In this document: one piece after another, positions 3,987-57,236 of the stretch
Layout of the letters: every line of letters starts with the position of its first letter
Position numbering within the stretch: position 1 is the first letter of the stretch
Source of the DNA: an uncultured Dehalococcoidia bacterium
GTDB taxonomy: Bacteria; Chloroflexota; Dehalococcoidia; Lucifugimonadales; UBA826
NCBI GenBank assembly: GCA_964394975.1
Contig: CAYMZR010000002.1
Span: 8,979 to 72,978, forward strand
Length of the DNA: 64,000 nucleotides
Reading direction: 5' to 3'
Program-made: the position numbers and the translations under genes
Notes under the pieces: generated by a model
The model's database searches: none
Seen by the model: the letters and a program-made list of their open reading frames with translations, nothing else
What the model was told of the DNA's origin: nothing

Positions 3987-5222
3987 ATGCTAATAATTCA
4001 TACCGCTGACATACATATAGGAGTCGAAAATTACAGTAGGCCAGATCCAAGAACTAGAACATCATCACGACTTCAAGATTTTTTAAGGTCCTTAGACGAA
4101 CTGGTTGATTATTCAATAGATAATGAAGCAGATTTAGTACTGATTTGCGGAGATGTATATAAAAGTAGAAACCCGACACAAACTCATCAAAGAGAATTTG
4201 TAAAAAGAATTTCTAGGCTTGCCAGAGAAGGGATCAAGGTTTTTCTATTGGCCGGCAACCATGATTCCCCAAACGTCCCAGGCCCAGCAACTACACTGGA
4301 CATATTTCCTACACTAGACATAGAAAATGTGCAGATCGCCAACGAACTAAACACCCAGGTAGTTCAAACCCGTAATGGATCCATTCAAGTAATATCATTG
4401 CCGTGGATTAGAAAAGGCGACTTTATGTCCCATGAGAAATATAACCAACTATCGAATGAAAAATTTAACTCAGCTATTGAGGAAAAATTAATTGACGACC
4501 TAAATAAAGAAATAGCTAATTTAGATCCCTCAATGCCAAGCATATTAGCTTCTCATGTATCGACAGACCTGGCTAAAACAAGCTCAGAAAAATCTATGAC
4601 CCTTGGAAAAGACTACCTCTTGCCAACTAAATTTTTAGCTAATCCAAAGCTAGATTACATAGCCCTTGGTCATATCCATAGGCACCAAGTACTAAACGAA
4701 GAACCGCCGGTAGTGTACTCAGGTAGTTTAGAAAGAATAGATTTTGGAGAAGAAAAAGATTCTAAAGGATTTTGTGCGATAGACATTTCCACTACCCCAG
4801 ATAAAAAAAATAGATTGAACTCCTATGAATTTATTGAGGTAAATGCAAGAAGGTTCAGAACTATTTCAACAAAGATAGAAGAAAGTGATGAATACCCTAA
4901 CGAGAAAATTTTAGCCGAGATAGCAAAACACGACGTAAAAGGCGCCATCGTGCAAGTAATAATTGAAGTCAATTCGGCACGGTACAGAGAAATATCTGAC
5001 AAGAAGATCAGGGAAAGTCTGTCTGAAGCAAATTTTATAGCTGCAGTAAGAAAAAATGTCATTACCGAAAGCAAAAACAGATTGGGGAAGGAGTTACATG
5101 AATCAATCCCTGTAATTGAAGCTCTAGAAACCTATTTAAAAGAACGCCAAATAGATGACCGGAGAATACGATTGCTACTTGAGAAAGGTCAGAATCTTAT
5201 ATCAGAAAACCCACCCCAATGA
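3987..5222 (+). CDS. sbcD: SbcD/Mre11-family DNA repair exonuclease
   Basis: HTADIHIG, CGDVYKSRNP, AGNHD, SH and GHIH phosphoesterase motifs, plus a C-terminal capping region. No sbcC follows. Confidence 0.8.
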   Translation: MLIIHTADIHIGVENYSRPDPRTRTSSRLQDFLRSLDELVDYSIDNEADLVLICGDVYKSRNPTQTHQREFVKRISRLAREGIKVFLLAGNHDSPNVPGPATTLDIFPTLDIENVQIANELNTQVVQTRNGSIQVISLPWIRKGDFMSHEKYNQLSNEKFNSAIEEKLIDDLNKEIANLDPSMPSILASHVSTDLAKTSSEKSMTLGKDYLLPTKFLANPKLDYIALGHIHRHQVLNEEPPVVYSGSLERIDFGEEKDSKGFCAIDISTTPDKKNRLNSYEFIEVNARRFRTISTKIEESDEYPNEKILAEIAKHDVKGAIVQVIIEVNSARYREISDKKIRESLSEANFIAAVRKNVITESKNRLGKELHESIPVIEALETYLKERQIDDRRIRLLLEKGQNLISENPPQ

Positions 5223-5263
5223 TACTGATTTCTCAACAGGGACATCATTCGAAAATCTACCCG

Positions 5264-5770
5264 ATGAAACCCTCATTATTGTTACTATTTGCATTAATTC
5301 TGATGGGGGGCTGCTCACTTATGAATCCTCATCAAACAGCACCGCCATTCATGATTGATCTCTACCATACAACTGATCACAGTGAGCACGAGGTATTCAA
5401 TTTGGAACAGCACAAGGGAACCCCTACATTTATAAATTTTTGGTTCCCTTCTTGCCCTCCCTGTGTTGCGGAAATGCCTCAACTTAATAAGTTTTATTCA
5501 CAACACAAAAATGACGTAAATGTGGTAGCGATTCAACTTATCGGGCTCGACTCCATGGAAGATGGACAAAAGTTTGTAAAGGAAAAAGGTATCCATTTTG
5601 CAGTTGGCCCAGATCCAATGGGAAAAGTCTCAGTCGATTACCAAATCAGTGTGTATCCAACCACTATATTTGTAGACTCAGAGGGAAACATAGTGGATTA
5701 TTGGCAGGGAGAGATCAATGCCGAAGAACTCAAACAAAAATTTACGGATATACAAAACCCTGAGGATTGA
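5264..5770 (+). CDS. TlpA/ResA-family thiol:disulfide oxidoreductase, probable lipoprotein
   Basis: WFPSCPPCVAEMP thioredoxin-fold CxxC motif. MKPSLLLLFALILMGGC looks like a signal peptide with a lipobox. The ORF is also open from the ATG at 5219, which overlaps the sbcD stop (ATGA). Confidence 0.85.
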   Translation: MKPSLLLLFALILMGGCSLMNPHQTAPPFMIDLYHTTDHSEHEVFNLEQHKGTPTFINFWFPSCPPCVAEMPQLNKFYSQHKNDVNVVAIQLIGLDSMEDGQKFVKEKGIHFAVGPDPMGKVSVDYQISVYPTTIFVDSEGNIVDYWQGEINAEELKQKFTDIQNPED

Positions 5771-5773
5771 AAT

Positions 5774-6274
5774 TTGGATATAACTGACTTGTTCCATGTT
5801 TTCGTCAGATGGGCCCATCTTGTATCTGCTGGTGCGTGGGTGGGGGGTAGTATTTTCTGGATTCTTGTCTTAAACCCTTCCACAAGACAATTTGACTCGG
5901 ATTTTGTCAGTCAATTACAAGGCCAAATTTCCACTGAATTCCGAGGATTAGTTGACACCTGTATATTCATTCTTTTGACAACCGGCGCCATAATGACATT
6001 TAACAGACTTACACCTGGAAATATAGGTTACCAATATGTATTAGTTTTAGGTTTAAAAATCATTTTTGCGGCGGCAATGTTCTATTTGATAAGAGCCAAA
6101 CGCCAATCAAAAACAACTCGTGTTAAAACAAATTCCAACAATACTCCGAAAGGCACACTAGGACAATTTACAAAAATGGCAACTGCCTATAATTTGGTGT
6201 TACTACTGGGACTAATGGTATATCTGTTATCAGATTTGATGAACATGATCTACATGGCAACTGTATCAAATTAA
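5774..6274 (+). CDS. integral membrane protein, CopD-like (about 4 TM helices)
   Basis: A TTG start lies 7 nt after a GAGGA SD. The RWAHLVSAGAWVGGSIF segment resembles the CopD-domain signature (from memory). There are four hydrophobic helices. Confidence 0.55.
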   Translation: MDITDLFHVFVRWAHLVSAGAWVGGSIFWILVLNPSTRQFDSDFVSQLQGQISTEFRGLVDTCIFILLTTGAIMTFNRLTPGNIGYQYVLVLGLKIIFAAAMFYLIRAKRQSKTTRVKTNSNNTPKGTLGQFTKMATAYNLVLLLGLMVYLLSDLMNMIYMATVSN

Positions 6275-7012: not shown

Positions 7013-7873
7013 CTATCCCCTCCTCACAATTGCATCAGTCATCTTAGATACTCGGTACATTTCTTTGACATCATGAACTCGAACCATATCGGCTCCTCGT
7101 GAAATAGCTACTGCTACTGTGGCAGCAGTGCCTTCAATCCGGTCATCAACTGTCAAATCTAAAACCTCCCCAATGGTGGCTTTTCTAGACGTACCTACAA
7201 GTAAGGGAAGTCCTATTTTTTTGTATTCTTGCAGTCGATTTAAAATTTCGAGGTTCTCAGTAGTTCTTTTGGAAAACCCTATGCCTGGGTCTATGATGAT
7301 TTTATCTTGGTGTATGCCACTATCCACTGCAAATTCCACTTGAGCTTTTAGAAAGTCCAAAGTGTCTAATACCACATCACGATATCTCGGTTCTTTTGCG
7401 TTATGCATTAACACCACAGAAACTCCAGTATCGGCAATAAGAGGAGCCATTTCTGGGTCTCCAGAAAGTCCCCATATGTCATTTACGACATGAGCCCCTG
7501 CAGCAATCGCTGCTTCTGCCACCTTTGATTTGTATGTGTCAACACTGATCAAGCAGTTAGCTTTATTCGCCAACCCATGTATGGTTGGAATGACTCTATC
7601 CAACTCTTCATCTAGCGATATTTTATCCACTTCCCCATAGACCGCGTGAGGTCTTGATGACTCTCCTCCAACATCTAATACATCGGCCCCGTCGGCTAAC
7701 ATATCAATCCCTTTATCAACCGCCAAGTCCACGGCCGAATAGATACCATCATTAGAAAAAGAATCCGGAGTAGTATTCAATATTCCCATCACATAAGTTC
7801 TTGATCCCCAATTAAACAAGGTCGACTCCAAACTAATCCTCATGCACTCCCTTAATATGCTCATAATAGGCAT
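7013..7873 (-). CDS. folP: dihydropteroate synthase
   Basis: MGILNTTPDSFSNDG, DVGGESSRP, NDIWG and DPGIGFSK motifs. Confidence 0.92.
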   Translation of the reverse strand: MPIMSILRECMRISLESTLFNWGSRTYVMGILNTTPDSFSNDGIYSAVDLAVDKGIDMLADGADVLDVGGESSRPHAVYGEVDKISLDEELDRVIPTIHGLANKANCLISVDTYKSKVAEAAIAAGAHVVNDIWGLSGDPEMAPLIADTGVSVVLMHNAKEPRYRDVVLDTLDFLKAQVEFAVDSGIHQDKIIIDPGIGFSKRTTENLEILNRLQEYKKIGLPLLVGTSRKATIGEVLDLTVDDRIEGTAATVAVAISRGADMVRVHDVKEMYRVSKMTDAIVRRG

Positions 7874-7910
7874 TGATGGCTAACTGAAAATATCCACCTT
7901 CACACCATGC

Positions 7911-7939
7911 CTGACATACTTTTTGGGGTGAGATATAAT
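7911..7939 (+). promoter_or_regulatory. candidate sigma70-type promoter for the carboxyltransferase operon
   Basis: CTGACA (7911-7916), a 17-nt spacer, then TATAAT (7934-7939), about 70 nt upstream of the ATG at 8009. Confidence 0.35.
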
Positions 7940-8008
7940 TGTGCTCTAGGGAAGCATATTAACATTTCAACAATTACCTTTAATGATCTAACATTTTAAT
8001 CTAGCTAC

Positions 8009-9571
8009 ATGACACTAGAAAACTCAACATCTAAAAAGCACGCAGAATTACTTGATAAGAAAGCCCTAGGCCTAAAGGGTGGTGGGGACAAACGAGTCGA
8101 AGCTCAACACAAAAGAGGCAAGTTAACTGCTAGAGAAAGGATTTCCCTACTCTTAGATGAAGGGACATTTGAAGAATTAGACCCCTTAGTATTGCACCGG
8201 TCTGCCGATTTTGGTCTTGAAAACCAGCAGTACCTCGGTGACGCGGTCGTGACTGGATATGGCGAAGTAAACGGCAGACTAACATTTGTATATGCCCAAG
8301 ATTTTACCGTTCTGGGAGGTTCACTATCAGAGGCAGTGGCAAATAAAATATGCAAAGTCATGGACAGAGCCATGGATAATGGTGCCCCAATTGTCGGTCT
8401 AATTGATTCCGGTGGAGCTAGAATCCAAGAAGGTGTAGACAGCCTGTCTGGATATGGAGCTATTTTCCAAAGGAACGTGATGGCTTCAGGAGTAATCCCG
8501 CAGATATCAGTAATGATGGGACCCGCCGCAGGAGGAGCAACCTATTCACCTGCCTTAACAGACTTCATTTTTATGGTGGAAGGACTAGGCCAGATGTACA
8601 TAACAGGCCCTGACGTTATTAAAGCCGTGACAGGAGAAGAAATTTCCCATGAAGATTTAGGGGGAAGTGAAGCTCACACAGTAAAAAGTGGCGTCGCTCA
8701 TTTCGCTGACGACACTGAGGAATCTTGCATCTCTAAGGTCCAAAACCTGCTAAGTTTTCTACCCCAAAACAATATGGAAAATCCACCTGCTGCCGCGGTT
8801 ACTGACCTTTCAGATAGATATGCAGACTCATTGAATAAAATTATCCCAGACAACCCTAACCAGCCCTACAACATGTTAGATGTTATTCATACAGTTGTAG
8901 ACAACAAAGACTTCTTACAAGTACATCAAAAATTTGCTCCTAATATTTTAGTTGGCCTAGCAAGATTCGACGGTAACCCTGTAGGAATAGTGGCCCAGCA
9001 GCCTGACCATAACGCAGGTGTTTTAGATATAGATGCGTCGGTGAAAGCAGCGCGATTTGTAAGATTTTGTGATGCTTTTAACATTCCGTTAGTCACTTTT
9101 ATTGACGTACCTGGATTCTTGCCAGGGAGCTCTCAAGAATATGGCGGCATTATTAGACATGGAGCAAAACTGATATTTGCTTACGCTGAAGCCACCGTCC
9201 CTAAAATAAGCGTCTTGACTAGAAAGGCTTACGGTGGAGCATACATCGTGATGAGCAGCAAGAATCTAAAGGGCGACATTAACTATTCTTGGCCAACTGG
9301 ACAAGTCGCCGTTATGGGCGCTGAAGGAGCTGTAAACATAATTCACCGTTCAAAAATTATGGATTCAGACGATCCCAAAAAGTTGACTGCTGAACTAGTG
9401 TCAGAATATGAGGGAAACTTGATGAACCCTTATATAGCGGCTAGCAGAGGTATGATAGATGATGTTATAGAACCCGGCGAAACGCGCACAAAAATTATTA
9501 AGGCACTTAAGATGCTGGCAAATAAAAGAGACAACATGCCCCCGAAAAAGCATGGAAGTATCCCTTTATAA
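8009..9571 (+). CDS. acyl-CoA carboxyltransferase (propionyl-CoA carboxylase beta / methylmalonyl-CoA carboxyltransferase 12S type)
   Basis: RGKLTARERISLLLDEGTFEE N-terminus. It has two crotonase-like CT halves and reads like the PccB/MmdA family along its full 520 aa. Confidence 0.92.
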   Translation: MTLENSTSKKHAELLDKKALGLKGGGDKRVEAQHKRGKLTARERISLLLDEGTFEELDPLVLHRSADFGLENQQYLGDAVVTGYGEVNGRLTFVYAQDFTVLGGSLSEAVANKICKVMDRAMDNGAPIVGLIDSGGARIQEGVDSLSGYGAIFQRNVMASGVIPQISVMMGPAAGGATYSPALTDFIFMVEGLGQMYITGPDVIKAVTGEEISHEDLGGSEAHTVKSGVAHFADDTEESCISKVQNLLSFLPQNNMENPPAAAVTDLSDRYADSLNKIIPDNPNQPYNMLDVIHTVVDNKDFLQVHQKFAPNILVGLARFDGNPVGIVAQQPDHNAGVLDIDASVKAARFVRFCDAFNIPLVTFIDVPGFLPGSSQEYGGIIRHGAKLIFAYAEATVPKISVLTRKAYGGAYIVMSSKNLKGDINYSWPTGQVAVMGAEGAVNIIHRSKIMDSDDPKKLTAELVSEYEGNLMNPYIAASRGMIDDVIEPGETRTKIIKALKMLANKRDNMPPKKHGSIPL

Positions 9572-26372: not shown

Positions 26373-27740
26373 CTAGGAATCCCAGGGGGTAATTCCTTCC
26401 TTTAACGCTTTATAGCCTTCAAGGAACCCAGGTCTATTCTCTCCATAAATACTGTCAAAGACATCGAGGGCGTTGTCCAACCATTCCTTCAATTGGGTAT
26501 CCCCGGGATTGGCATCTAGATATGCATCACGTATCAATACAAAATGGATACGTGGATCGTAAGGTCTTTTGGTCCCCCCCATAGATTCATCACCGTCCAG
26601 TAAGCGTAACAACATGGCATCTGCAGACCCGAGAGTCTGCTCGTGTATAGGCGGGCCATCCATTCGGTGCATGACAGAGGTCATATCTCTTCCATTACCA
26701 GTTGTATATCCCATTTCAGACCATGCATCCCACATGCTGACATCTTTACCGACATGCTGAACCACTTTGTCCCCGAAGGCACGCAAGGGATCCGAAATAT
26801 CAGCTAACAAGTCCGTTAATCTATCACCGTCCAGGTCAGTTGCAAGGACTATCGTGTCTCTTTGCTCAATAAGATCCCATATCAACAGACCATAGTTAGT
26901 ATCTGAAATATGTTGTTCGACCCGACCTCCCCAATTTTCCATCCCTTCTTTAAAATCAGATGGAAGCAGTGAAACTATCTGGTCTATACGATCTTTATGT
27001 TCTTCATATGGGTCTACCGCATACCGTCTACCCACCTCAAATTTGGTGTCCTTCAATAACCATGAATGCAGTCCTGCGTTAATTCCATCCTCCATCGCCT
27101 GAGTAGGCTTCATCGCAACACGACCCAAATGTCCGCTATCATTTACCATTTTAAGGAATAGCCTATTGGCGTAGGCCATTTGAACTCCCGGAGTATTCAT
27201 TTCTGAATGGACAATACCCGCTTCATTCACTCCAAATTTATCTTTGTCTTGAGAGTAAGGAAGACAGGGCATGCACCGAACAACAGTAATTGGCCCGTAT
27301 GGTCTTACGTTGCAGTAAACCCCAGCTTGTGTTCTCAAAGGCGCATTTCCTGATTTCCCCATCACGACAACCCTGTTCCCATTACCATCATTTACATATG
27401 CATCACCCGCAGTGGACCATTTAATAGATGTACATGGCATGTTACCAAACCACCCTAATGAAGCGAGTTCGGTGTCATGTCTATATTGTGACCACATAGG
27501 TACTGCATAAAAAGGGAGTCCCAATATATCCGCAGCAGCTATAGTTCCTAGCAATGCATAGGCATCAGTCAAAGAATGTGCCACTGGATTGAGGTTGCTA
27601 TCATGGTTTCCACCTTGCCAAACTACTGCGTCCGAATAGCCTTCTGGTCTTACATCTGAAGACTCAAACAGGTCCGAAAGCAAGCCAAGCAAATCTCCTC
27701 CACTTGCCTCTGTTCGAGCAATCGACAGTAAATCAATCAT
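26373..27740 (-). CDS. hypothetical protein, no recognisable family (455 aa)
   Basis: A long uninterrupted ORF co-directional with the upstream ThDP enzyme. The composition looks soluble and is rich in Asp, Gly and Trp. I cannot place any motif. Confidence 0.6.
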   Translation of the reverse strand: MIDLLSIARTEASGGDLLGLLSDLFESSDVRPEGYSDAVVWQGGNHDSNLNPVAHSLTDAYALLGTIAAADILGLPFYAVPMWSQYRHDTELASLGWFGNMPCTSIKWSTAGDAYVNDGNGNRVVVMGKSGNAPLRTQAGVYCNVRPYGPITVVRCMPCLPYSQDKDKFGVNEAGIVHSEMNTPGVQMAYANRLFLKMVNDSGHLGRVAMKPTQAMEDGINAGLHSWLLKDTKFEVGRRYAVDPYEEHKDRIDQIVSLLPSDFKEGMENWGGRVEQHISDTNYGLLIWDLIEQRDTIVLATDLDGDRLTDLLADISDPLRAFGDKVVQHVGKDVSMWDAWSEMGYTTGNGRDMTSVMHRMDGPPIHEQTLGSADAMLLRLLDGDESMGGTKRPYDPRIHFVLIRDAYLDANPGDTQLKEWLDNALDVFDSIYGENRPGFLEGYKALKEGITPWDS

Positions 27741-29635: not shown

Positions 29636-30301
29636 CTAAATGTGCCGAATAGCCTTTGATGCGGCTTCTTTTTCCGCGCGATTTCTACTAGTACTCTTGC
29701 CTGTTGCGATGACTTTCTCACCAATCAGAACTTCAACGATAAATGTTGGCTTATGTGGAGGCCCATATTTGCGGGCAATTCTGTAATGCGGTGATACTGA
29801 AAACTTACTTTGAGTTATTGACATCAGTTCAGTTTTTGGGTCATTTTTGCTAGCAATCCTTTGAGAACGTTTGGACATTACATCCAAATTTTCCAATATG
29901 AATTCTTTTGCATTTAGATACCCACGGTCTAAGAAAAAAGCCCCCACCAAAGCCTCAAATGCATTGGCCAAATTGGAGTCTTTATTTCTTCCACCAGAAC
30001 CTTCTTCACCGTTACCTAGTAGCAACTGATCCCCTATCCCCAGTTTCCTAGATACTTTCGCTAGGTAATCCCCTTTTACGACACTACTCCTCAAAGTAGT
30101 TAATTCTCCCTCATCGAAATCTGGATATTTTTCATACACAGTTTCGGCTATCACAGCATAAATAACGGCGTCTCCCAGAAATTCAAGGCGCTCATTAGAT
30201 TCTTGTTTCGGGTTTTGGGACTCGTTAACCCAGGAGGGATGCCTCATACTCAAATCAAACAAATTTCTATTGGTAAATCTATCCTTCAGATTATGAGGCA
30301 T
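29636..30301 (-). CDS. rnc: ribonuclease III
   Basis: ERLEFLGDAV signature and a C-terminal dsRBD (KTELMS...GKSTSRNRAEKEAASKA). Confidence 0.92.
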   Translation of the reverse strand: MPHNLKDRFTNRNLFDLSMRHPSWVNESQNPKQESNERLEFLGDAVIYAVIAETVYEKYPDFDEGELTTLRSSVVKGDYLAKVSRKLGIGDQLLLGNGEEGSGGRNKDSNLANAFEALVGAFFLDRGYLNAKEFILENLDVMSKRSQRIASKNDPKTELMSITQSKFSVSPHYRIARKYGPPHKPTFIVEVLIGEKVIATGKSTSRNRAEKEAASKAIRHI

Positions 30302-30323: not shown

Positions 30324-30953
30324 CTACACCGCGCCTTTGGGCCAAGGTGGCTGAGGACGTTTGACTTCCCCTATATAGGACCTGCTTTCAAACAGACCAA
30401 GAAAATGTGTGAATGCATCTAGCGATTCCTCTTCAGGCGGAATAAATGTTTTCAAATAGGCAGATTGCCCATTATCAAAAATAAAAGTTGGGGTTCCAAA
30501 GGCTCCATGAACCTCCGTTGCTTCGGTATGATCTCCCGCAATTATTTTTACTAACTCAGAATCCTTCATATCGGATTGAAACTTCTCAGCATCCAATCCA
30601 CATTCTTCAGCTATTTGAACAAACAAAGATTCATCGTTAAGCGGAGCTCTATCCCCACCGTGCCTTGCAGTAAGAAGGGCAAGGAAAAATTTATCGAATA
30701 GCTCCGGACCTTGTCTTTTCGCTGCCTCACCTGCTATTGAGGCCATTAAAGACCTGGTTGTACTATAATCCTCTTCCTGCCAAACTCGCCAATCACCTGG
30801 ATCTTTTGCGTTTATTTGTTGCAGTGAAAAATTCCTCCAATTAAGTTGAAGATTTTCACCATAATGTTCTTTGACTTTATCCAGCCACACGGCTGCATTG
30901 TAAACATAAGGTCAAGCAAAATCGAAAAATACGTCGAATTCCATTTTATCCAT
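30324..30953 (-). CDS. DsbA-fold (FrnE / HCCA isomerase / GST-kappa-like) protein with an in-frame TGA at the active-site position; candidate selenoprotein
   Basis: The ORF track starts at the GTG at 30890. The same frame upstream reads ATG(30953)...MDKMEFDVFFDFA-TGA(30914-30912)-PYVYNAAVWLDKV. This restores the missing N-terminal FDFx[C/S]P[FY]xY motif with TGA on the nucleophile. GGGAGAG lies just upstream of the ATG, and a hairpin lies 16 nt after the TGA. Confidence 0.6.
30879..30898 (-). promoter_or_regulatory. candidate bacterial SECIS hairpin
   Basis: The mRNA reads 5'-AAUG CAGCC GUGU GGCUG GAUA-3'. It forms a 5-bp G/C-rich stem with a GUGU loop, plus 2 further A-U pairs below a G.G mismatch. 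The stem starts 16 nt downstream of the in-frame UGA. Confidence 0.45.
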
Positions 30954-31074
30954 GTGACTCTCCCGTTTTTGTAAGTACGCTATCGTTAGTTTACCGTAAT
31001 TTATCAGCAATAATAAAACAATTTCTGAAAACTGATTTATTCCCCGATTTATTCAATGTTGTTGCTCTCCGAGT

Positions 31075-31092
31075 TGTTACACTTCGTTAACA
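31075..31092. promoter_or_regulatory. inverted repeat TGTTA-N8-TAACA (possible operator) in the long glnA upstream region
   Basis: TGTTACACTTCGTTAACA was read directly. It resembles, but does not match, the TnrA/GlnR (TGTNA-N7-TNACA) and NtcA (GTA-N8-TAC) site geometries. Confidence 0.2.
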
Positions 31093-31283
31093 TGGACGCA
31101 ATATGAAGGCAACAAAGCAATTAGATAATCGACGATCATTAAATCATTAATAGGGAGCACCAATAGTAAGCTCGGTCCAGCAATAATATACAGGAAAGTA
31201 GAAAAATACGAAGGATTGCTAATATCGCAAGCGAGTCAGCAGAATTACTTAAATTAATGAATATTAATGGTTGTAAAATTTGT

Positions 31284-31312
31284 TTGACACTTTTTTCACA
31301 AATGATTACTCT
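31284..31312 (+). promoter_or_regulatory. candidate sigma70-type promoter for glnA
   Basis: TTGACA (31284-31289), a 17-nt spacer, then TACTCT (31307-31312), about 70 nt upstream of the ATG at 31383. An AAAGGA SD precedes the start. Confidence 0.4.
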
Positions 31313-31382
31313 TTAATGCCTATATTTTGGCTATACACGAAGCAAAAACAACACACCAGAGCCCTCTAAAAAGGATTTCTGT

Positions 31383-52317: not shown

Positions 52318-52806
52318 TTGACAACCGAAAAAGACAATCTCAGGATTAGTATTAAAGAGGCCATTGATTCTCAAAAACGGCCTACTGTCACTGTATTATC
52401 ATCTTTGCTAGCAATTCAGGACTCAATAGGTTACATCCCTGACGAGGCAATAGAAGAAGTAGCAGTTCACTCCAACACCTCAATTAATTCTGTATTTGGA
52501 GTGGCCTCCTTTTACCCTAATTTCAGATTTACACCGCCGGGAGAACATTCAGTCGAAGTCTGCTGGGGACCCACCTGCCACCTGAAAGGATCTACTGAAA
52601 TATTGGAATCAGTTCTTGCCAAACTAGGCTTGGCGTCAGAAGGTGACACCGAAGACGGCAAGGTGTCATTCAGATTCAATACATGCCTAGGGGCTTGTTC
52701 ACAGGCTCCAGTTTTGAGTGTCGACCATGAATTATACGGAAAAATTGATCCGGGAATGGCCGCTAAATTATTAGGCGATCTTGATCAAAAAGACACAACC
52801 CACTGA
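52318..52806 (+). CDS. nuoE: NuoE-like [2Fe-2S] thioredoxin-fold subunit
   Basis: CWGPTCHLKG ... CLGACSQAP four-Cys pattern. It has a TTG start. Confidence 0.85.
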   Translation: MTTEKDNLRISIKEAIDSQKRPTVTVLSSLLAIQDSIGYIPDEAIEEVAVHSNTSINSVFGVASFYPNFRFTPPGEHSVEVCWGPTCHLKGSTEILESVLAKLGLASEGDTEDGKVSFRFNTCLGACSQAPVLSVDHELYGKIDPGMAAKLLGDLDQKDTTH

Positions 52807-52822
52807 CAGGCCAAAGTAGTCA

Positions 52823-54571
52823 ATGAATTACGAAGAAATTGCCTCTAACGCTAAAACTGAATGGGACAACATGACTAATGGCAGAGTCCCTTTGATTAGA
52901 ATCGGTACGGCCATGTGTGGACACGCTGCTGGTGCTTTCAGAGTCTTAGACACGTTGAAAAAACATATTGCTGAAAAGGAAATAGAAGCCAATATACAAG
53001 AAGTTGGATGCCTTGGTCTTTGCTATGCTGAGCCTCTTATAGACATAAAAAAGCCGAATAAATCAAGGCTTTTCTTCAACAACGTAACCCCTGAAGATGT
53101 TGGTGAAATAATTGACGAGTATTTAGTCGCTAATGGATACCCAAAAGAAAAAATTTTCGGGTATATCGGAAACGAAGGGCCGGTCAACGATGAAGCTTCT
53201 CTTGAATCAATGCCATGCCTGAAGCTCCAAAACAGAATAGCGCTTAGAAATGCGGGACACACATCGCCGTATGACATAAACCAATACATAGCCAATGGTG
53301 GCTACAGCGGGCTACATAAGGCGCTGTCCAATATGTCTCCCTCAGACGTTATAGACGAAGTAAAAAACTCAGGACTTAGAGGACGAGGAGGAGCTGCATT
53401 CCCAACAGGTGTGAAATGGAGTTTCTTGGTAGGGTCTCCAGGCCCAACCAAATACATCTTATGCAATTGCGAAGAGGGAGATCCAGGTGCTTATAATGAC
53501 AAAGGAATATTAGAGAGCGATCCACATACCTTGCTGGAGGGACTCGCTATTGCTGGATACGCCACTGGAGCATCCAATGGAATAGTTTTCATAAGACATG
53601 GACATGATGGACCAATTGATAGAACTGAAAAAGCTATCGAGCAAGCTTACGAATCCGGTTTACTAGGAAAAAATATCTTAGGAACAGATTTTAGCTTCGA
53701 TATAGAGGTGGCTCTAACTGGTGAATCTTATGTTGCCGGTGAAGAAACAGCTCTAATGGAAGCCGTAGAAGGCAAAAGATCTATGCCCAGATACCGGCCT
53801 CCATTTCCTGCAGCGTTCGGAGTTTGGGGAAAGCCAAGCAACATTAACAATGTCAAATCCTTGTCGTATGCCCCAGAAATAATCTCAAAGGGAGCAGACT
53901 GGTTTTCTTCCATTGGTGTCAATCAAAGCACTGGCACTGCAATAGTATGTCTAAGTGGAGATGTAAACAGGCCAGGCCTCTATGAAGTGCCTATGGGATT
54001 GACTCTAGGAGAAGTTATAGATGACTTGGGAGGTGGTGTGAGTGACGGCGGCCAACTAAAACTCCTGCAGACAGGAGGGCCTTTAGGGGGGGTGTTAGGC
54101 CCAGATAGTAAGGATATTCATATAGATTTTGACGAAATGCGAAGCGCAGGTGCTATATTTGGATCTGGTGGAATAATTGTTGGAAGCAATAGGGTTTGTG
54201 CTGTCGATTTGACCAGAATACTAGTCGCCTTCTGCCAATTTGAATCTTGCGGAAAATGCTTTCCGTGCAGATTAGGGATGGAACATTTACTAGAAATTGT
54301 AGAAAGAATATCGAGCTACCGCAGCAAACCAGGTGATATGGATCTAATGAAAAGCGTCGGCGGAACAATGGAAGCCGGTTCACTTTGCGGACATGGCCAA
54401 TTAGGTTTTGGGCCTATCCGATCTGCTATCACACATTTCGAAGAGGATTTCAGATTACATATAGAGGAAAGCAGATGCCCAACAGGCAGCTGCGATCGTT
54501 CAAAAATCGTACCAAAAAATACCCGGCCATATGCTGCTGACCACGTAATTGGAGAGTACCATGTCAGATAA
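52823..54571 (+). CDS. nuoF: NuoF-like NADH/FMN-binding subunit with an extra N-terminal [2Fe-2S] ferredoxin-like domain
   Basis: GLRGRGGAAFPTGVKW, CNCEEGDPGAY, and ESCGKCFPCRLG. The N-terminal domain carries MCGH...GCLGLC. Confidence 0.88.
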   Translation: MNYEEIASNAKTEWDNMTNGRVPLIRIGTAMCGHAAGAFRVLDTLKKHIAEKEIEANIQEVGCLGLCYAEPLIDIKKPNKSRLFFNNVTPEDVGEIIDEYLVANGYPKEKIFGYIGNEGPVNDEASLESMPCLKLQNRIALRNAGHTSPYDINQYIANGGYSGLHKALSNMSPSDVIDEVKNSGLRGRGGAAFPTGVKWSFLVGSPGPTKYILCNCEEGDPGAYNDKGILESDPHTLLEGLAIAGYATGASNGIVFIRHGHDGPIDRTEKAIEQAYESGLLGKNILGTDFSFDIEVALTGESYVAGEETALMEAVEGKRSMPRYRPPFPAAFGVWGKPSNINNVKSLSYAPEIISKGADWFSSIGVNQSTGTAIVCLSGDVNRPGLYEVPMGLTLGEVIDDLGGGVSDGGQLKLLQTGGPLGGVLGPDSKDIHIDFDEMRSAGAIFGSGGIIVGSNRVCAVDLTRILVAFCQFESCGKCFPCRLGMEHLLEIVERISSYRSKPGDMDLMKSVGGTMEAGSLCGHGQLGFGPIRSAITHFEEDFRLHIEESRCPTGSCDRSKIVPKNTRPYAADHVIGEYHVR

Positions 54572-57236
54572 GGTTAACCTCACAATAGACGGAGTAGAAG
54601 TCCAAGCAGAGCCAGGCAGCATGATAATACAAGCTGCAATGGATAATGGTATGTACATACCATATCTATGCTATTACCCTGGAATGAAACCTTATGGAGC
54701 TTGCAGAATGTGCGTAGTAAAGGCAGAAGCTCCTACCCCAGACGGCAGCTATCGACCCTTGCCCGGCAGCCCAGCCTCATGCACAACCCCCATATCTGAA
54801 GGCATGAGAGTCGAAACAAACGCCGAGGATACCGTCGGGCTTCGGAAAGGAATAATGGAACTGCTCATATCAGAACATCCCCATGGTTGCCTTAATTGTC
54901 ACCGAATAGAACTTTGTGGCCCAACTGATGTTTGTCTTAGGCATGTTTCAGTTAACGATCGGTGTGTAACATGCCCAAAAAACGAAAGATGTGAATTAAA
55001 AGATACTGTGAGGTATATGGAAATGGAGCTTACCACTCCGCTTACGTATAACAATCGGCATCTCCCGTTAGAAGTCAAAGATCCTTTTTGGGACATGGAC
55101 ATGAATTTATGCATAGTATGTTCCAGATGTGTCAGGGCATGCGACGAGGTCAGAGGAGACAGTGCCATCACCCTAAAAGAGCGGTCTGGCAGAAGTATAA
55201 TTGGTACAGCAGCAGGAACCTCTCTGCTCGAGTCCGGATGCGAATTCTGTGGCGCATGCATAGATGTCTGTCCTACTGGAGCAATTGTGGAGAGAGAGTA
55301 CAAATGGGACAAAGCGGTTGAGCAGGTCTCAACCACCTGCCCTCATTGCCCAGTCGGATGTCAATTAGATCTTGATGTCAACAAAAGAAACAAGGTAGTA
55401 CGATCTATACCAAACCGTCACGCTGAAGCGAATATGGGTATGGCTTGCTTCAAAGGTAAATTCGGGTTGGACTTTGTTAACAAAAGAAATAGACTCAAAA
55501 AACCCATGCTCCGTAGAAATTCAGAACTCAAAGAAGTTACGTGGCCTGAAGCTTTGGATTTTCTATCTGAAAAGTTGGACGGTTATACAAATGACGATTA
55601 TGCCTTAATAGGTTCTACAAGAGGAACTAATGAGGATAATTATGTCGCACAAAAATTTGCACGAAGAGTGATGAAGTCAAACAACATTAATGTTTCATCG
55701 AATTCAAGAACTAAATTAGTGTCTGCTCTACAAAGTGCCATCGGTGACGACTCCGCCACCAACACAATATGGAGTCTACTAAATTCAGAGGTGATCCTAC
55801 TCGTATCAGCCAACATCACAGAAGAGCAAAACGTTGCTTCAGTCCCAATAAAACAGGCCATAGCAAAAGGTTCAAAGCTAATTGTCATTGACCAAAGAGA
55901 GACAGAGCTTACTCGGTATGCTACAAAATGGATTCGCCCTTTTGTTAATTCAGAATCTAACCTTATTGGCGGGCTCCTTAGGAGCATCCTAGATCAATCC
56001 TTAGAAGACCATGACTTCGCTAAGGAACATTGTGAAGGCTATGATGAATTCCGCAATTCTCTCTGGAATTTTGATCTCGTAAAAGTGAGTGCTCAAACCG
56101 GAATACCTCAAGAAGAAATAACTGAGCTAGCTCAGTTATTTGGCAAATCGGAATCATCATCAATACTATATGGGTTAGAAACAGTCTCTGAAGAGTATGT
56201 AGATCCCACAGTTAAATCCCTTGTCAATCTAGCTCTTGTTACAGGAAACATAGGGAAAAAATCCGGCGGTATATACCCTCTGTATGGTGGGGCAAACCAG
56301 CAGGGGGCTAAAGATATGGGCTGTGTACCTGACTTTTTGCCAGGACATAAACCGGTGGACGCCCCAGGTTTAAATTTAGATGAAATATCGAACGCCTGTT
56401 CATCTGGAAAGATAAAAGCCTTACATCTGATTGGTGATGAACTTTTCCACAACACCCACGAGCGACAGAATTTTTTGAAAAAGATAAAACACCTAGAGCT
56501 TTTAGTCGTTCACGAAAGTTTTGAAAGCGACATAACGAGAATGGCGGATGTTGTACTACCCTCAGCTGTCTTCGCAGAAAAAAACGGCACGTACACAAAT
56601 ATGGAAGGGAGGGTTCACCGACTCAGAGCCGCCATAGGACCGGCCGGAGATGAAGATGAAGATTGGAGAATATTATCGCAATTAGCGGCGAGATTGGGAT
56701 CAAATGAACTTTCCTATTCTTCCTATGAAGAGATTCAGACGGAGATAACACAAGAGGTAGATTCTTACAAAAATGTTCCAGTTGAAAACCTTGGAACGGC
56801 AGGACACATTAGGAAAATAGAATCAAAAAAGCGTTACCTTTTTTCACCTCTTGAATTCACTAAAAATGAAGAACCTGAAGTCGATGATAAATATCCACTC
56901 GTTTTTGCTCCAGGCAGAGTTTTATTCGACGCTGACAGAGACGCAGGTATAGTGACTGAGAATGACCAAAACACCATAACAAGAACGGAAATCATTGAAA
57001 TGAATAGAAAGGATGCTGAGGAAGCAGGAATTTCAGAAGGAGACACCGTTAAAATACAGGGGGAAAGTTTCGAACTAACAGGAAATGCCCATCTCAACGG
57101 CCTGCATTCAGGAATGGTGGCCACCACCACCCTGTTTGGCTCTTTAATAGCATCTTTGAATAACAGTACAGAACCAGATCCAATGACTAAAATAGGAAAT
57201 CTCAGGCTTTGCAAAGTGCGGGTCGAAAAAGTTTAA
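54561..57236 (+). CDS. NuoG / formate-dehydrogenase-alpha-like multi-FeS molybdopterin-fold subunit lacking the catalytic Cys/Sec
   Basis: An N-terminal 2Fe-2S motif (CYYPGMKPYGACRMC), two ferredoxin-type motifs (CIVCSRCVRAC, CEFCGACIDVC), and CPHCPVGC...ACFKG. The FdhA active-site stretch reads NNINVSSNSRTKLVSAL, with no Cys or TGA. The ATG at 54561 overlaps the nuoF-like stop. Confidence 0.8.
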   Translation: MSDKVNLTIDGVEVQAEPGSMIIQAAMDNGMYIPYLCYYPGMKPYGACRMCVVKAEAPTPDGSYRPLPGSPASCTTPISEGMRVETNAEDTVGLRKGIMELLISEHPHGCLNCHRIELCGPTDVCLRHVSVNDRCVTCPKNERCELKDTVRYMEMELTTPLTYNNRHLPLEVKDPFWDMDMNLCIVCSRCVRACDEVRGDSAITLKERSGRSIIGTAAGTSLLESGCEFCGACIDVCPTGAIVEREYKWDKAVEQVSTTCPHCPVGCQLDLDVNKRNKVVRSIPNRHAEANMGMACFKGKFGLDFVNKRNRLKKPMLRRNSELKEVTWPEALDFLSEKLDGYTNDDYALIGSTRGTNEDNYVAQKFARRVMKSNNINVSSNSRTKLVSALQSAIGDDSATNTIWSLLNSEVILLVSANITEEQNVASVPIKQAIAKGSKLIVIDQRETELTRYATKWIRPFVNSESNLIGGLLRSILDQSLEDHDFAKEHCEGYDEFRNSLWNFDLVKVSAQTGIPQEEITELAQLFGKSESSSILYGLETVSEEYVDPTVKSLVNLALVTGNIGKKSGGIYPLYGGANQQGAKDMGCVPDFLPGHKPVDAPGLNLDEISNACSSGKIKALHLIGDELFHNTHERQNFLKKIKHLELLVVHESFESDITRMADVVLPSAVFAEKNGTYTNMEGRVHRLRAAIGPAGDEDEDWRILSQLAARLGSNELSYSSYEEIQTEITQEVDSYKNVPVENLGTAGHIRKIESKKRYLFSPLEFTKNEEPEVDDKYPLVFAPGRVLFDADRDAGIVTENDQNTITRTEIIEMNRKDAEEAGISEGDTVKIQGESFELTGNAHLNGLHSGMVATTTLFGSLIASLNNSTEPDPMTKIGNLRLCKVRVEKV

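Follow-up and report, generated by a model that had tools for sequence, protein, structure and literature searches.

We examined a 64,000-nucleotide stretch of contig CAYMZR010000002.1 (here called the window), from an uncultured marine SAR202 (Chloroflexota) bacterium, and found on its minus strand a gene for a DsbA-fold redox protein whose reading frame is interrupted by a single TGA. This in-frame TGA is very probably a genuine selenocysteine (Sec) codon. The recoding signature, the fold and the placement of the codon at the active site all emerged directly from the analysis. The full-length gene, with Sec at codon 14, belongs to a group of DsbA-like proteins that have a single active-site Cys or Sec.

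Mechanical open reading frame (ORF) calling starts this gene at GTG 30890 and gives a product of 188 residues. If the same frame is read further upstream, as the initial annotation had proposed, the peptide MDKMEFDVFFDFA, the TGA and the residues PYVYNAAV, which end at GTG 30890, are added, and the start moves to an ATG at 30953. The TGA is the only in-frame stop between this ATG and TAG 30324. The coordinates, the upstream reading, the single TGA, the GGGAGAG tract 4 nt before the ATG and the hairpin beyond the TGA were all confirmed on the minus strand. GGGAGA is retained at the equivalent site in two related loci (L006 and L007, 84 to 86% nucleotide identity), and no Shine-Dalgarno-like motif of comparable kind precedes GTG 30890 in the window sequence. 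Pfam analysis of the read-through product revealed a DSBA domain (PF01323, residues 7 to 162, E=5e-17). Since this match begins at residue 7, strand beta1 and the active site are missing from the called 188-residue ORF, in agreement with the earlier suggestion that the N-terminal active-site strand had been missed. GTG 30890 lies inside the apical GUGU loop (30887-30890) of the hairpin, so that every pipeline arrives at the same wrong N terminus (MWLD...). Homologues retain the C-terminal KRPQPPWPKGAV through to their last residues. No signal peptide was found in the product, the N terminus of which (MDKMEFD) leads directly into beta1; the selenoprotein is therefore presumably cytoplasmic.

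In a first homologue search, 358 relatives were recovered. Most, at 188 to 191 residues, covered 90% of the query, which points to gene calls that begin at this internal Val/Met as well; a few, of 208 to 217 residues, covered it fully. The full-length relatives carry Cys at the TGA column of the alignment (FDFACPFVYNAAVWLD and similar), and two entries carry Trp. We inspected the DNA behind three relatives listed as "truncated" and one with "Trp", and in each an in-frame TGA follows a conserved FD.(F/Y)(F/Y)D(F/Y)(A/S) peptide. The Trp in P0011 and P0012 (L005, 171-173) is a TGA translated by the source pipeline under genetic code 4.

We then took a census with one genome per species. This yielded 471 relatives, of which the best 80, all from SAR202/Dehalococcoidia/Chloroflexota metagenome-assembled genomes (MAGs), were used. 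Among these best 80, TGA stands at the active site in 77 and TGT in the other 3, and tblastn matches to residues 1 to 209 cross the stop in 80 genomes. Such a recurrence of the TGA in one frame and peptide context goes well beyond chance. Complete chromosomes, for example OZ253472.1, OY762634.1, OY762210.1 and OZ242284.1, likewise have the TGA form. The loci L086 to L089 have TGC or TGT at the Sec-codon position. Relatives with as little as about 50% identity still have the segment FDxxxD[FY]x in frame before the TGA, and the invariant Asp at position -3 is encoded by both GAC (53 sequences) and GAT (19 sequences), which argues for selection on the protein, not the DNA, upstream of the TGA. 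The base after the UGA is C in all sequences. Homologues thus do not begin at the equivalent of position 30890, and those that contain Cys align across the TGA, as expected for a recoded codon. The TGA locus L060 and the TGC locus L089 differ at only 27 of 633 nt (96% nucleotide identity) and have identical N-terminal peptides and hairpins; judged from these sequences, exchange of Sec and Cys in this family is seen between very close relatives. In one Chloroflexota MAG (L048, about 7595-9220) there are two tandem copies of the gene, each with an in-frame TGA and the same hairpin.

The hairpin is formed by codons +5 to +11 relative to the TGA (AAT GCA GCC GTG TGG CTG GAT) and has the form AU-(G.G)-CAGCC, a GUGU loop and GGCUG-(G.G)-AU. 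In the model of the bacterial Sec insertion sequence (bSECIS) given in a 2026 review, the apical loop has 3 to 9 nt with a G within its first two nucleotides, the upper stem has 4 to 16 bp, the distance from the UGA to the loop is 16 to 37 nt, and the minimum free energy is -7.5 kcal/mol or lower. The element computed here has a loop of 4 nt, an upper stem of 5 bp (extendable to 7 to 8 bp in variants), a UGA-to-loop spacing of 21 nt and a minimum free energy of -9.8 kcal/mol (24-nt element, window), and so agrees with the published model in each respect. The energy is at or below -7.5 kcal/mol in 70 of 75 distinct sequences, GU stands at the start of the loop in all 75, and the core pairs are kept in 72 to 75 of them. 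RNAalifold gives a consensus structure for the hairpin. The paired fraction is 98% for the real structure and 11 to 43% for slid-partner controls. At the lower-stem pair 24-41, U-A is replaced by G-C in 4 sequences, and one-sided changes retain wobble pairs (A-U to G-U, 9 sequences).

Codon usage also marks this segment. Each hairpin codon is shared by 88 to 100% of 74 distinct Sec genes, but elsewhere in these genes it makes up only 17 to 38% of the codons for its amino acid. These counts are not phylogenetically independent. The adjacent Pro and Val codons vary freely. The hairpin is gone from an old, AT-rich clade with Cys (L042, CAJWPE01; L043, JAKUTY01; L046, QCNV01; codon TGT; 34% GC), whereas GCC-GTG-CTG persists in the window, at 41% GC. 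Rfam gave no match at gathering thresholds and only sub-threshold noise under a permissive setting; it seems to have no model that captures the present bSECIS.

The structure of P0031, the closest natural Cys orthologue (56% identical to the window protein), was modelled. The AlphaFold model (predicted local distance difference test score, 92.1) comprises beta1 (residues 4 to 10), Cys14, a helix (15 to 30), beta2, a helical insert and a strand after GT-P-T; as modelled, this is the canonical DsbA architecture of a thioredoxin fold with a helical insert. The cis-Pro motif of the window protein is GT-P155-T. Val17 rather than Cys stands at +3 relative to the Sec, and the protein has no further conserved Cys. 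The best structural match of the model in the PDB was DR2335 of Deinococcus radiodurans (7DK9; C24S mutant, 7DKA) with a template modelling (TM) score of 0.79, followed by Rv2466c (0.72); FrnE, YjbH, kappa glutathione S-transferase (GST) and 2-hydroxychromene-2-carboxylate (HCCA) isomerase scored about 0.6. The best PDB match by sequence also was 7DK9 (E=6e-16), with Cys24, which is Ser in 7DKA, aligned to the Sec. The HCCA isomerase 2IMD was matched by sequence at E=0.2 over residues 6 to 41, in the N-terminal motif only. The placement in the FrnE/HCCA isomerase/GST-kappa branch that was first suggested is thus to be corrected: GST-kappa and HCCA isomerase stand further off, their likeness lying chiefly in an N-terminal DxxSP-type motif, and DR2335 and Rv2466c are the nearest relatives.

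A profile search of 1.84 billion representatives retrieved 77 clusters at E<=1e-30. Each of the distant full-length members carries just one Cys within D[FY]xCP[FYW], lacks Cys at +3 and, in almost every case, terminates with an (I/L/V)KRP-type motif. On this sequence evidence, the window protein is best described as a Sec version of a broad 1-Cys DsbA-like family. It shares with the DR2335-type proteins the DsbA fold, the D[FY]xCP[FYW] motif with Sec as the nucleophile, the C-terminal (K/R)RP, and the absence of both a CxxC motif and a signal peptide. DR2335 itself has a single Cys in FDFLCPYAW that aligns to the Sec, ends in RRP and is predicted to be cytoplasmic; it differs in using Cys and is about 26% identical. 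Two Deinococcus reviews state that DR_2335 is without functional data, no reports on its function or expression exist, and a literature search on 7DK9/DR2335 found no functional study. The window protein has neither the signal peptide nor the second Cys of a CPHC-type CxxC that mark a classical periplasmic DsbA. Rv2466c, a mycothiol-dependent nitroreductase (4ZIL/4NXI), is similar in fold but has a CPWC dithiol motif; the window protein lacks CxxC, and its match to the Pfam Rv2466c-like domain (PF22234, 23.0 bits) is below the cut-off of 27. Three clusters of about 415 to 423 residues (P0184, P0187 and P0256) fuse a dephospho-coenzyme A kinase (CoaE, E about 1e-46 to 1e-49) to a 1-Cys DsbA-like domain of this family at the C terminus.

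The first DsbA-like selenoproteins, with the motif UxxC, were described in 2005 from the Sargasso Sea (PMC1088965). The Global Ocean Sampling (GOS) study of 2008 distinguished three groups, including "DsbA 3 (UxxV)", with sequences in its Dataset S1 (Zhang & Gladyshev, PMC2398784). Like the window protein, that group is marine and belongs to pfam01323, and its one Sec, in U-P-[FW]-V, occupies the equivalent place in the alignment. The window protein has U-P-Y-V, and BLASTP against one of the published reads (JCVI_READ_1592875, ...FSIYFDFRUPFVYNVAVWL...) gave 43% identity over 200 residues (E=4e-57) with the Sec aligned. The family is therefore an already published predicted selenoprotein, and the UPYV single-Sec variant, which the initial annotation called worth characterising, is not new ground. 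The GOS group is known from 5 shotgun reads only, to which no organism, structure, function or SECIS analysis is attached. Its SAR202 orthologue, the window protein, has an extended KRPQPPWPKG tail. The present analysis adds the home of the family in SAR202, the 77:3 census of Sec and Cys, a description of the SECIS, the structural relationship to DR2335 in place of kappa GST, and the findings that every public annotation is truncated and that NCBIfam has no model.

The 2026 review (PMC13188914) lists a "DsbA-like protein form 2" with the motif DxxUP. This form also combines PF01323 with D-x-x-U-P, which in the window protein is D11-F-A-U14-P15. Its representative, MDP6049977.1, is annotated as a crotonase/enoyl-CoA hydratase; the window protein has no crotonase domain. 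We considered whether this "crotonase" could be a fusion within the 1-Cys family, but the fusions found are with CoaE, not crotonase. The "DsbA-like protein form 1" and GOS groups DsbA 1 and 2 share the DsbA fold and Sec at the first active-site position but keep the resolving Cys (U-P-W-C). The window protein has Val17 at that place, and no Cys occurs at +3 in any family sequence examined.

Previous genome surveys are consistent with Sec use in this lineage. In BSepDB (2026), which covers only species with the Sec pathway, the ten bacteria richest in selenoprotein genes include two Dehalococcoidia MAGs, with 49 and 46 such genes, and Dehalogenimonas and many other Chloroflexi were scored as Sec users by Peng et al. 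(2016). A literature search for a link between SAR202 and Sec returned nothing relevant. The window was scanned for ORFs joined by a TGA, and no second selenoprotein gene was found; an all-against-all comparison of TGA read-through products from 96 loci (1.67 Mb) returned the DsbA-like gene only, the other U/C columns being off-frame, low-complexity noise. An AhpC/TSA-redoxin-like gene (5219-5770, within 5219-6274, plus strand) ends in a TGA and is followed 3 nt on, in the same frame, by a CopD-like gene. There is no Cys-type context at this TGA, and the pair looks like two ordinary genes without recoding.

Several observations weigh against a Sec codon. ARAGORN found no tRNA-Sec in the 64-kb window, which has no tRNA of any kind, or in 60 related 20-kb flanks. 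No SelA, SelB or SelD was present in the Pfam annotation of the 40 window genes, and one incomplete SAR202 single-cell genome was scored as Sec negative by Peng et al. (2016). Judged on the window sequence by itself, the hairpin shows no significant gain in stability over shuffled sequences (z=-1.2), and RNAalifold detected no two-sided covariation in the core helix. Covariation is not possible there because the 3' arm is fixed by the Trp-Leu codons, and selection at the RNA level is therefore argued from the constraint on synonymous sites and from pair 24-41. In the GC-rich Cys forms L087 and L089 every hairpin nucleotide is unchanged, so that the constraint does not depend strictly on the TGA unless both forms switched recently from Sec to Cys. 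The near identity of L060 and L089 suggests that L087 and L089 are such recent switches, with a fossil SECIS. Finally, the insertion of selenium, the substrate and the reductant are inferred.

Other readings of the TGA were weighed against this background. One takes GTG 30890 as the true start, or the gene as a pseudogene in decay, with the 13 upstream codons and the TGA as an untranslated leader. All public gene callers and the ORF listing do give the form of 188 to 189 residues, but that form lacks beta1 and the whole DsbA active site, the Shine-Dalgarno motif stands before ATG 30953 rather than before the GTG, and the GTG itself lies in the loop of a conserved hairpin. Together with the in-frame conservation of the upstream peptide, the synonymous variation at its invariant Asp and the existence of full-length Cys orthologues, this makes a start at the GTG scarcely credible. 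An error of sequencing or assembly, which would turn a Cys protein with a mis-called start into an apparent Sec protein, needs a change of one base only, from TGC or TGT, and a close relative with TGC exists (L089 versus L060). Six independent assemblies from different samples and assemblers, however, contain the same gene with 630 of 630 nt identical, TGA included, and a sequencing error is thereby excluded; the prevalence of TGA among the species representatives leaves the chance of an assembly artefact negligible.

The UGA could also be read through without selenium, either under an alternative code (Trp or Gly) or by near-cognate or Cys-tRNA suppression aided by the hairpin at a leaky UGA-C. 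The two Trp entries in the databases, the invariant C after the UGA and the fact that Sec machinery was not observed directly would fit such a mechanism. The Trp entries, however, are code-4 calls, a product that table 11 does not give, and TGA ends 7 of the 44 long open frames of the window, including a Pfam-complete mutS and a NuoE-like gene. It is thus an ordinary stop in the window, which excludes a reassigned code. Orthologues substitute Cys, never Trp or Gly, the hairpin fits a SelB-type bSECIS, and the Dehalococcoidia are documented as rich in selenoproteins, so that we regard read-through of this kind as very unlikely. A different alternative accepts the Sec but assigns the protein to the kappa GST/HCCA isomerase type (3RPP, 1YZX and 2IMD), with Sec in place of the thiol-activating Ser and an isomerase or transferase rather than a redox activity. 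These enzymes are also cytoplasmic DsbA-fold proteins with an active-site residue in an N-terminal FDFxxP motif, the N-terminal motif of the window protein resembles the FDFLSP of 2IMD, and both enzymes are among the structural matches. Their catalytic residue is Ser, whereas every family member examined has Cys or Sec and never Ser, and at 13 to 15% identity they are distant in comparison with DR2335 and Rv2466c. Interchange of Sec and Cys is a hallmark of redox-active sites. An enzyme of this type is accordingly improbable, though less so than read-through without selenium.

Under the preferred reading, that the TGA encodes Sec, translation would begin at ATG 30953, and the UGA at codon 14 would be read as Sec, presumably by SelB with Sec-tRNA(Sec) recruited through the hairpin whose GUGU loop lies 21 nt downstream. 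Elongation would then continue to TAG 30324 and yield a protein of 209 residues. The selenolate of Sec14 would probably attack a disulfide, an S-thiolated substrate or another oxidised sulfur substrate to form a selenenyl-sulfide, which an external thiol (a low-molecular-weight thiol or a partner of the glutaredoxin or thioredoxin type) would resolve. With Val at +3 and no further conserved Cys, a mechanism of the dithiol type is ruled out, and the protein must act as a one-selenol redox catalyst. In one Cys-form locus (L088, 981-1214), a 77-residue glutaredoxin lies directly downstream in place of RNase III, which hints at a possible partner. We also considered a new selenoenzyme function with coenzyme A (CoA) as the thiol partner, for example in CoA-disulfide exchange or removal of S-CoA from proteins. 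Such a role is hinted at by the fusion to CoaE in three separate clusters of the 1-Cys family, by the annotation of the representative of the DxxUP form as a CoA-ester enzyme (PMC13188914) and by the near universality of the gene in SAR202 genomes, but it is a speculative proposal and we consider it unlikely.

The coordinates of the gene, its signals and the adjacent rnc are collected in Table 1. The adjacency to rnc is conserved in both Sec and Cys forms, and no terminator-like site was found between the two genes. This suggests that the selenoprotein gene is probably cotranscribed with rnc; it does not suggest a function.

Table 1. Positions of the selenoprotein gene, its translational signals and the neighbouring rnc gene in the window
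Feature	Position	Strand	Detail or basis
Full-length selenoprotein gene	30324..30953	minus	209 residues, Sec at codon 14; 1-Cys/1-Sec DsbA-like ("DsbA 3, UxxV")
Start codon ATG	30953-30951	minus	sequence
Shine-Dalgarno-like GGGAGAG	30958..30964	minus	4 nt (TCAC) before ATG 30953
Sec-UGA codon, residue 14	30912..30914	minus	N terminus of helix alpha1; Cys in orthologues
True stop codon TAG	30324..30326	minus	translation
bSECIS-type hairpin	30879..30898	minus	core stem 30895-30891 with 30886-30882; loop 30890-30887
RNase III gene rnc	29636..30301	minus	Pfam Ribonuclease_3 and dsrm; 22 nt downstream of the selenoprotein gene

On the other side of the gene, a 430-bp intergenic region (30954-31382) extends to a divergent glutamine synthetase gene. 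In relatives, one or two glnA genes lie beyond this region, some with amt and glnB as well, in a nitrogen-assimilation neighbourhood (glnA, gltB and gltD). Elsewhere in the window, an operon on the plus strand (52318-57236) encodes a NuoE-like 2Fe-2S protein, a NuoF-like flavoprotein and an 895-residue molybdopterin oxidoreductase, resembling an NAD-dependent formate dehydrogenase. The oxidoreductase gene is uninterrupted and, if it encodes a formate dehydrogenase, is not of the Sec type. A 455-residue ORF on the minus strand (26373-27740) has no Pfam match. In related SAR202 loci (L001, 13169-14536), a 455-residue gene without a Pfam domain also lies between genes for a thiamine pyrophosphate enzyme and serine hydroxymethyltransferase.

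In NCBI, JGI/IMG, ENA, Tara and Logan, the gene is recorded as a "DsbA family protein" or "hypothetical protein" of 188 to 189 residues that lacks the active site. NCBIfam has no model for this DsbA-like selenoprotein family, and automatic pipelines will therefore continue to mis-call the gene. The main value of the present finding is to correct an annotation error that recurs systematically for this selenoprotein, which nearly all sampled SAR202 genomes carry. Its biological value is modest: a family known only from GOS reads is now placed in SAR202/Dehalococcoidia, where Sec is the rule among the species representatives and replacements by Cys are occasional and sometimes very recent.

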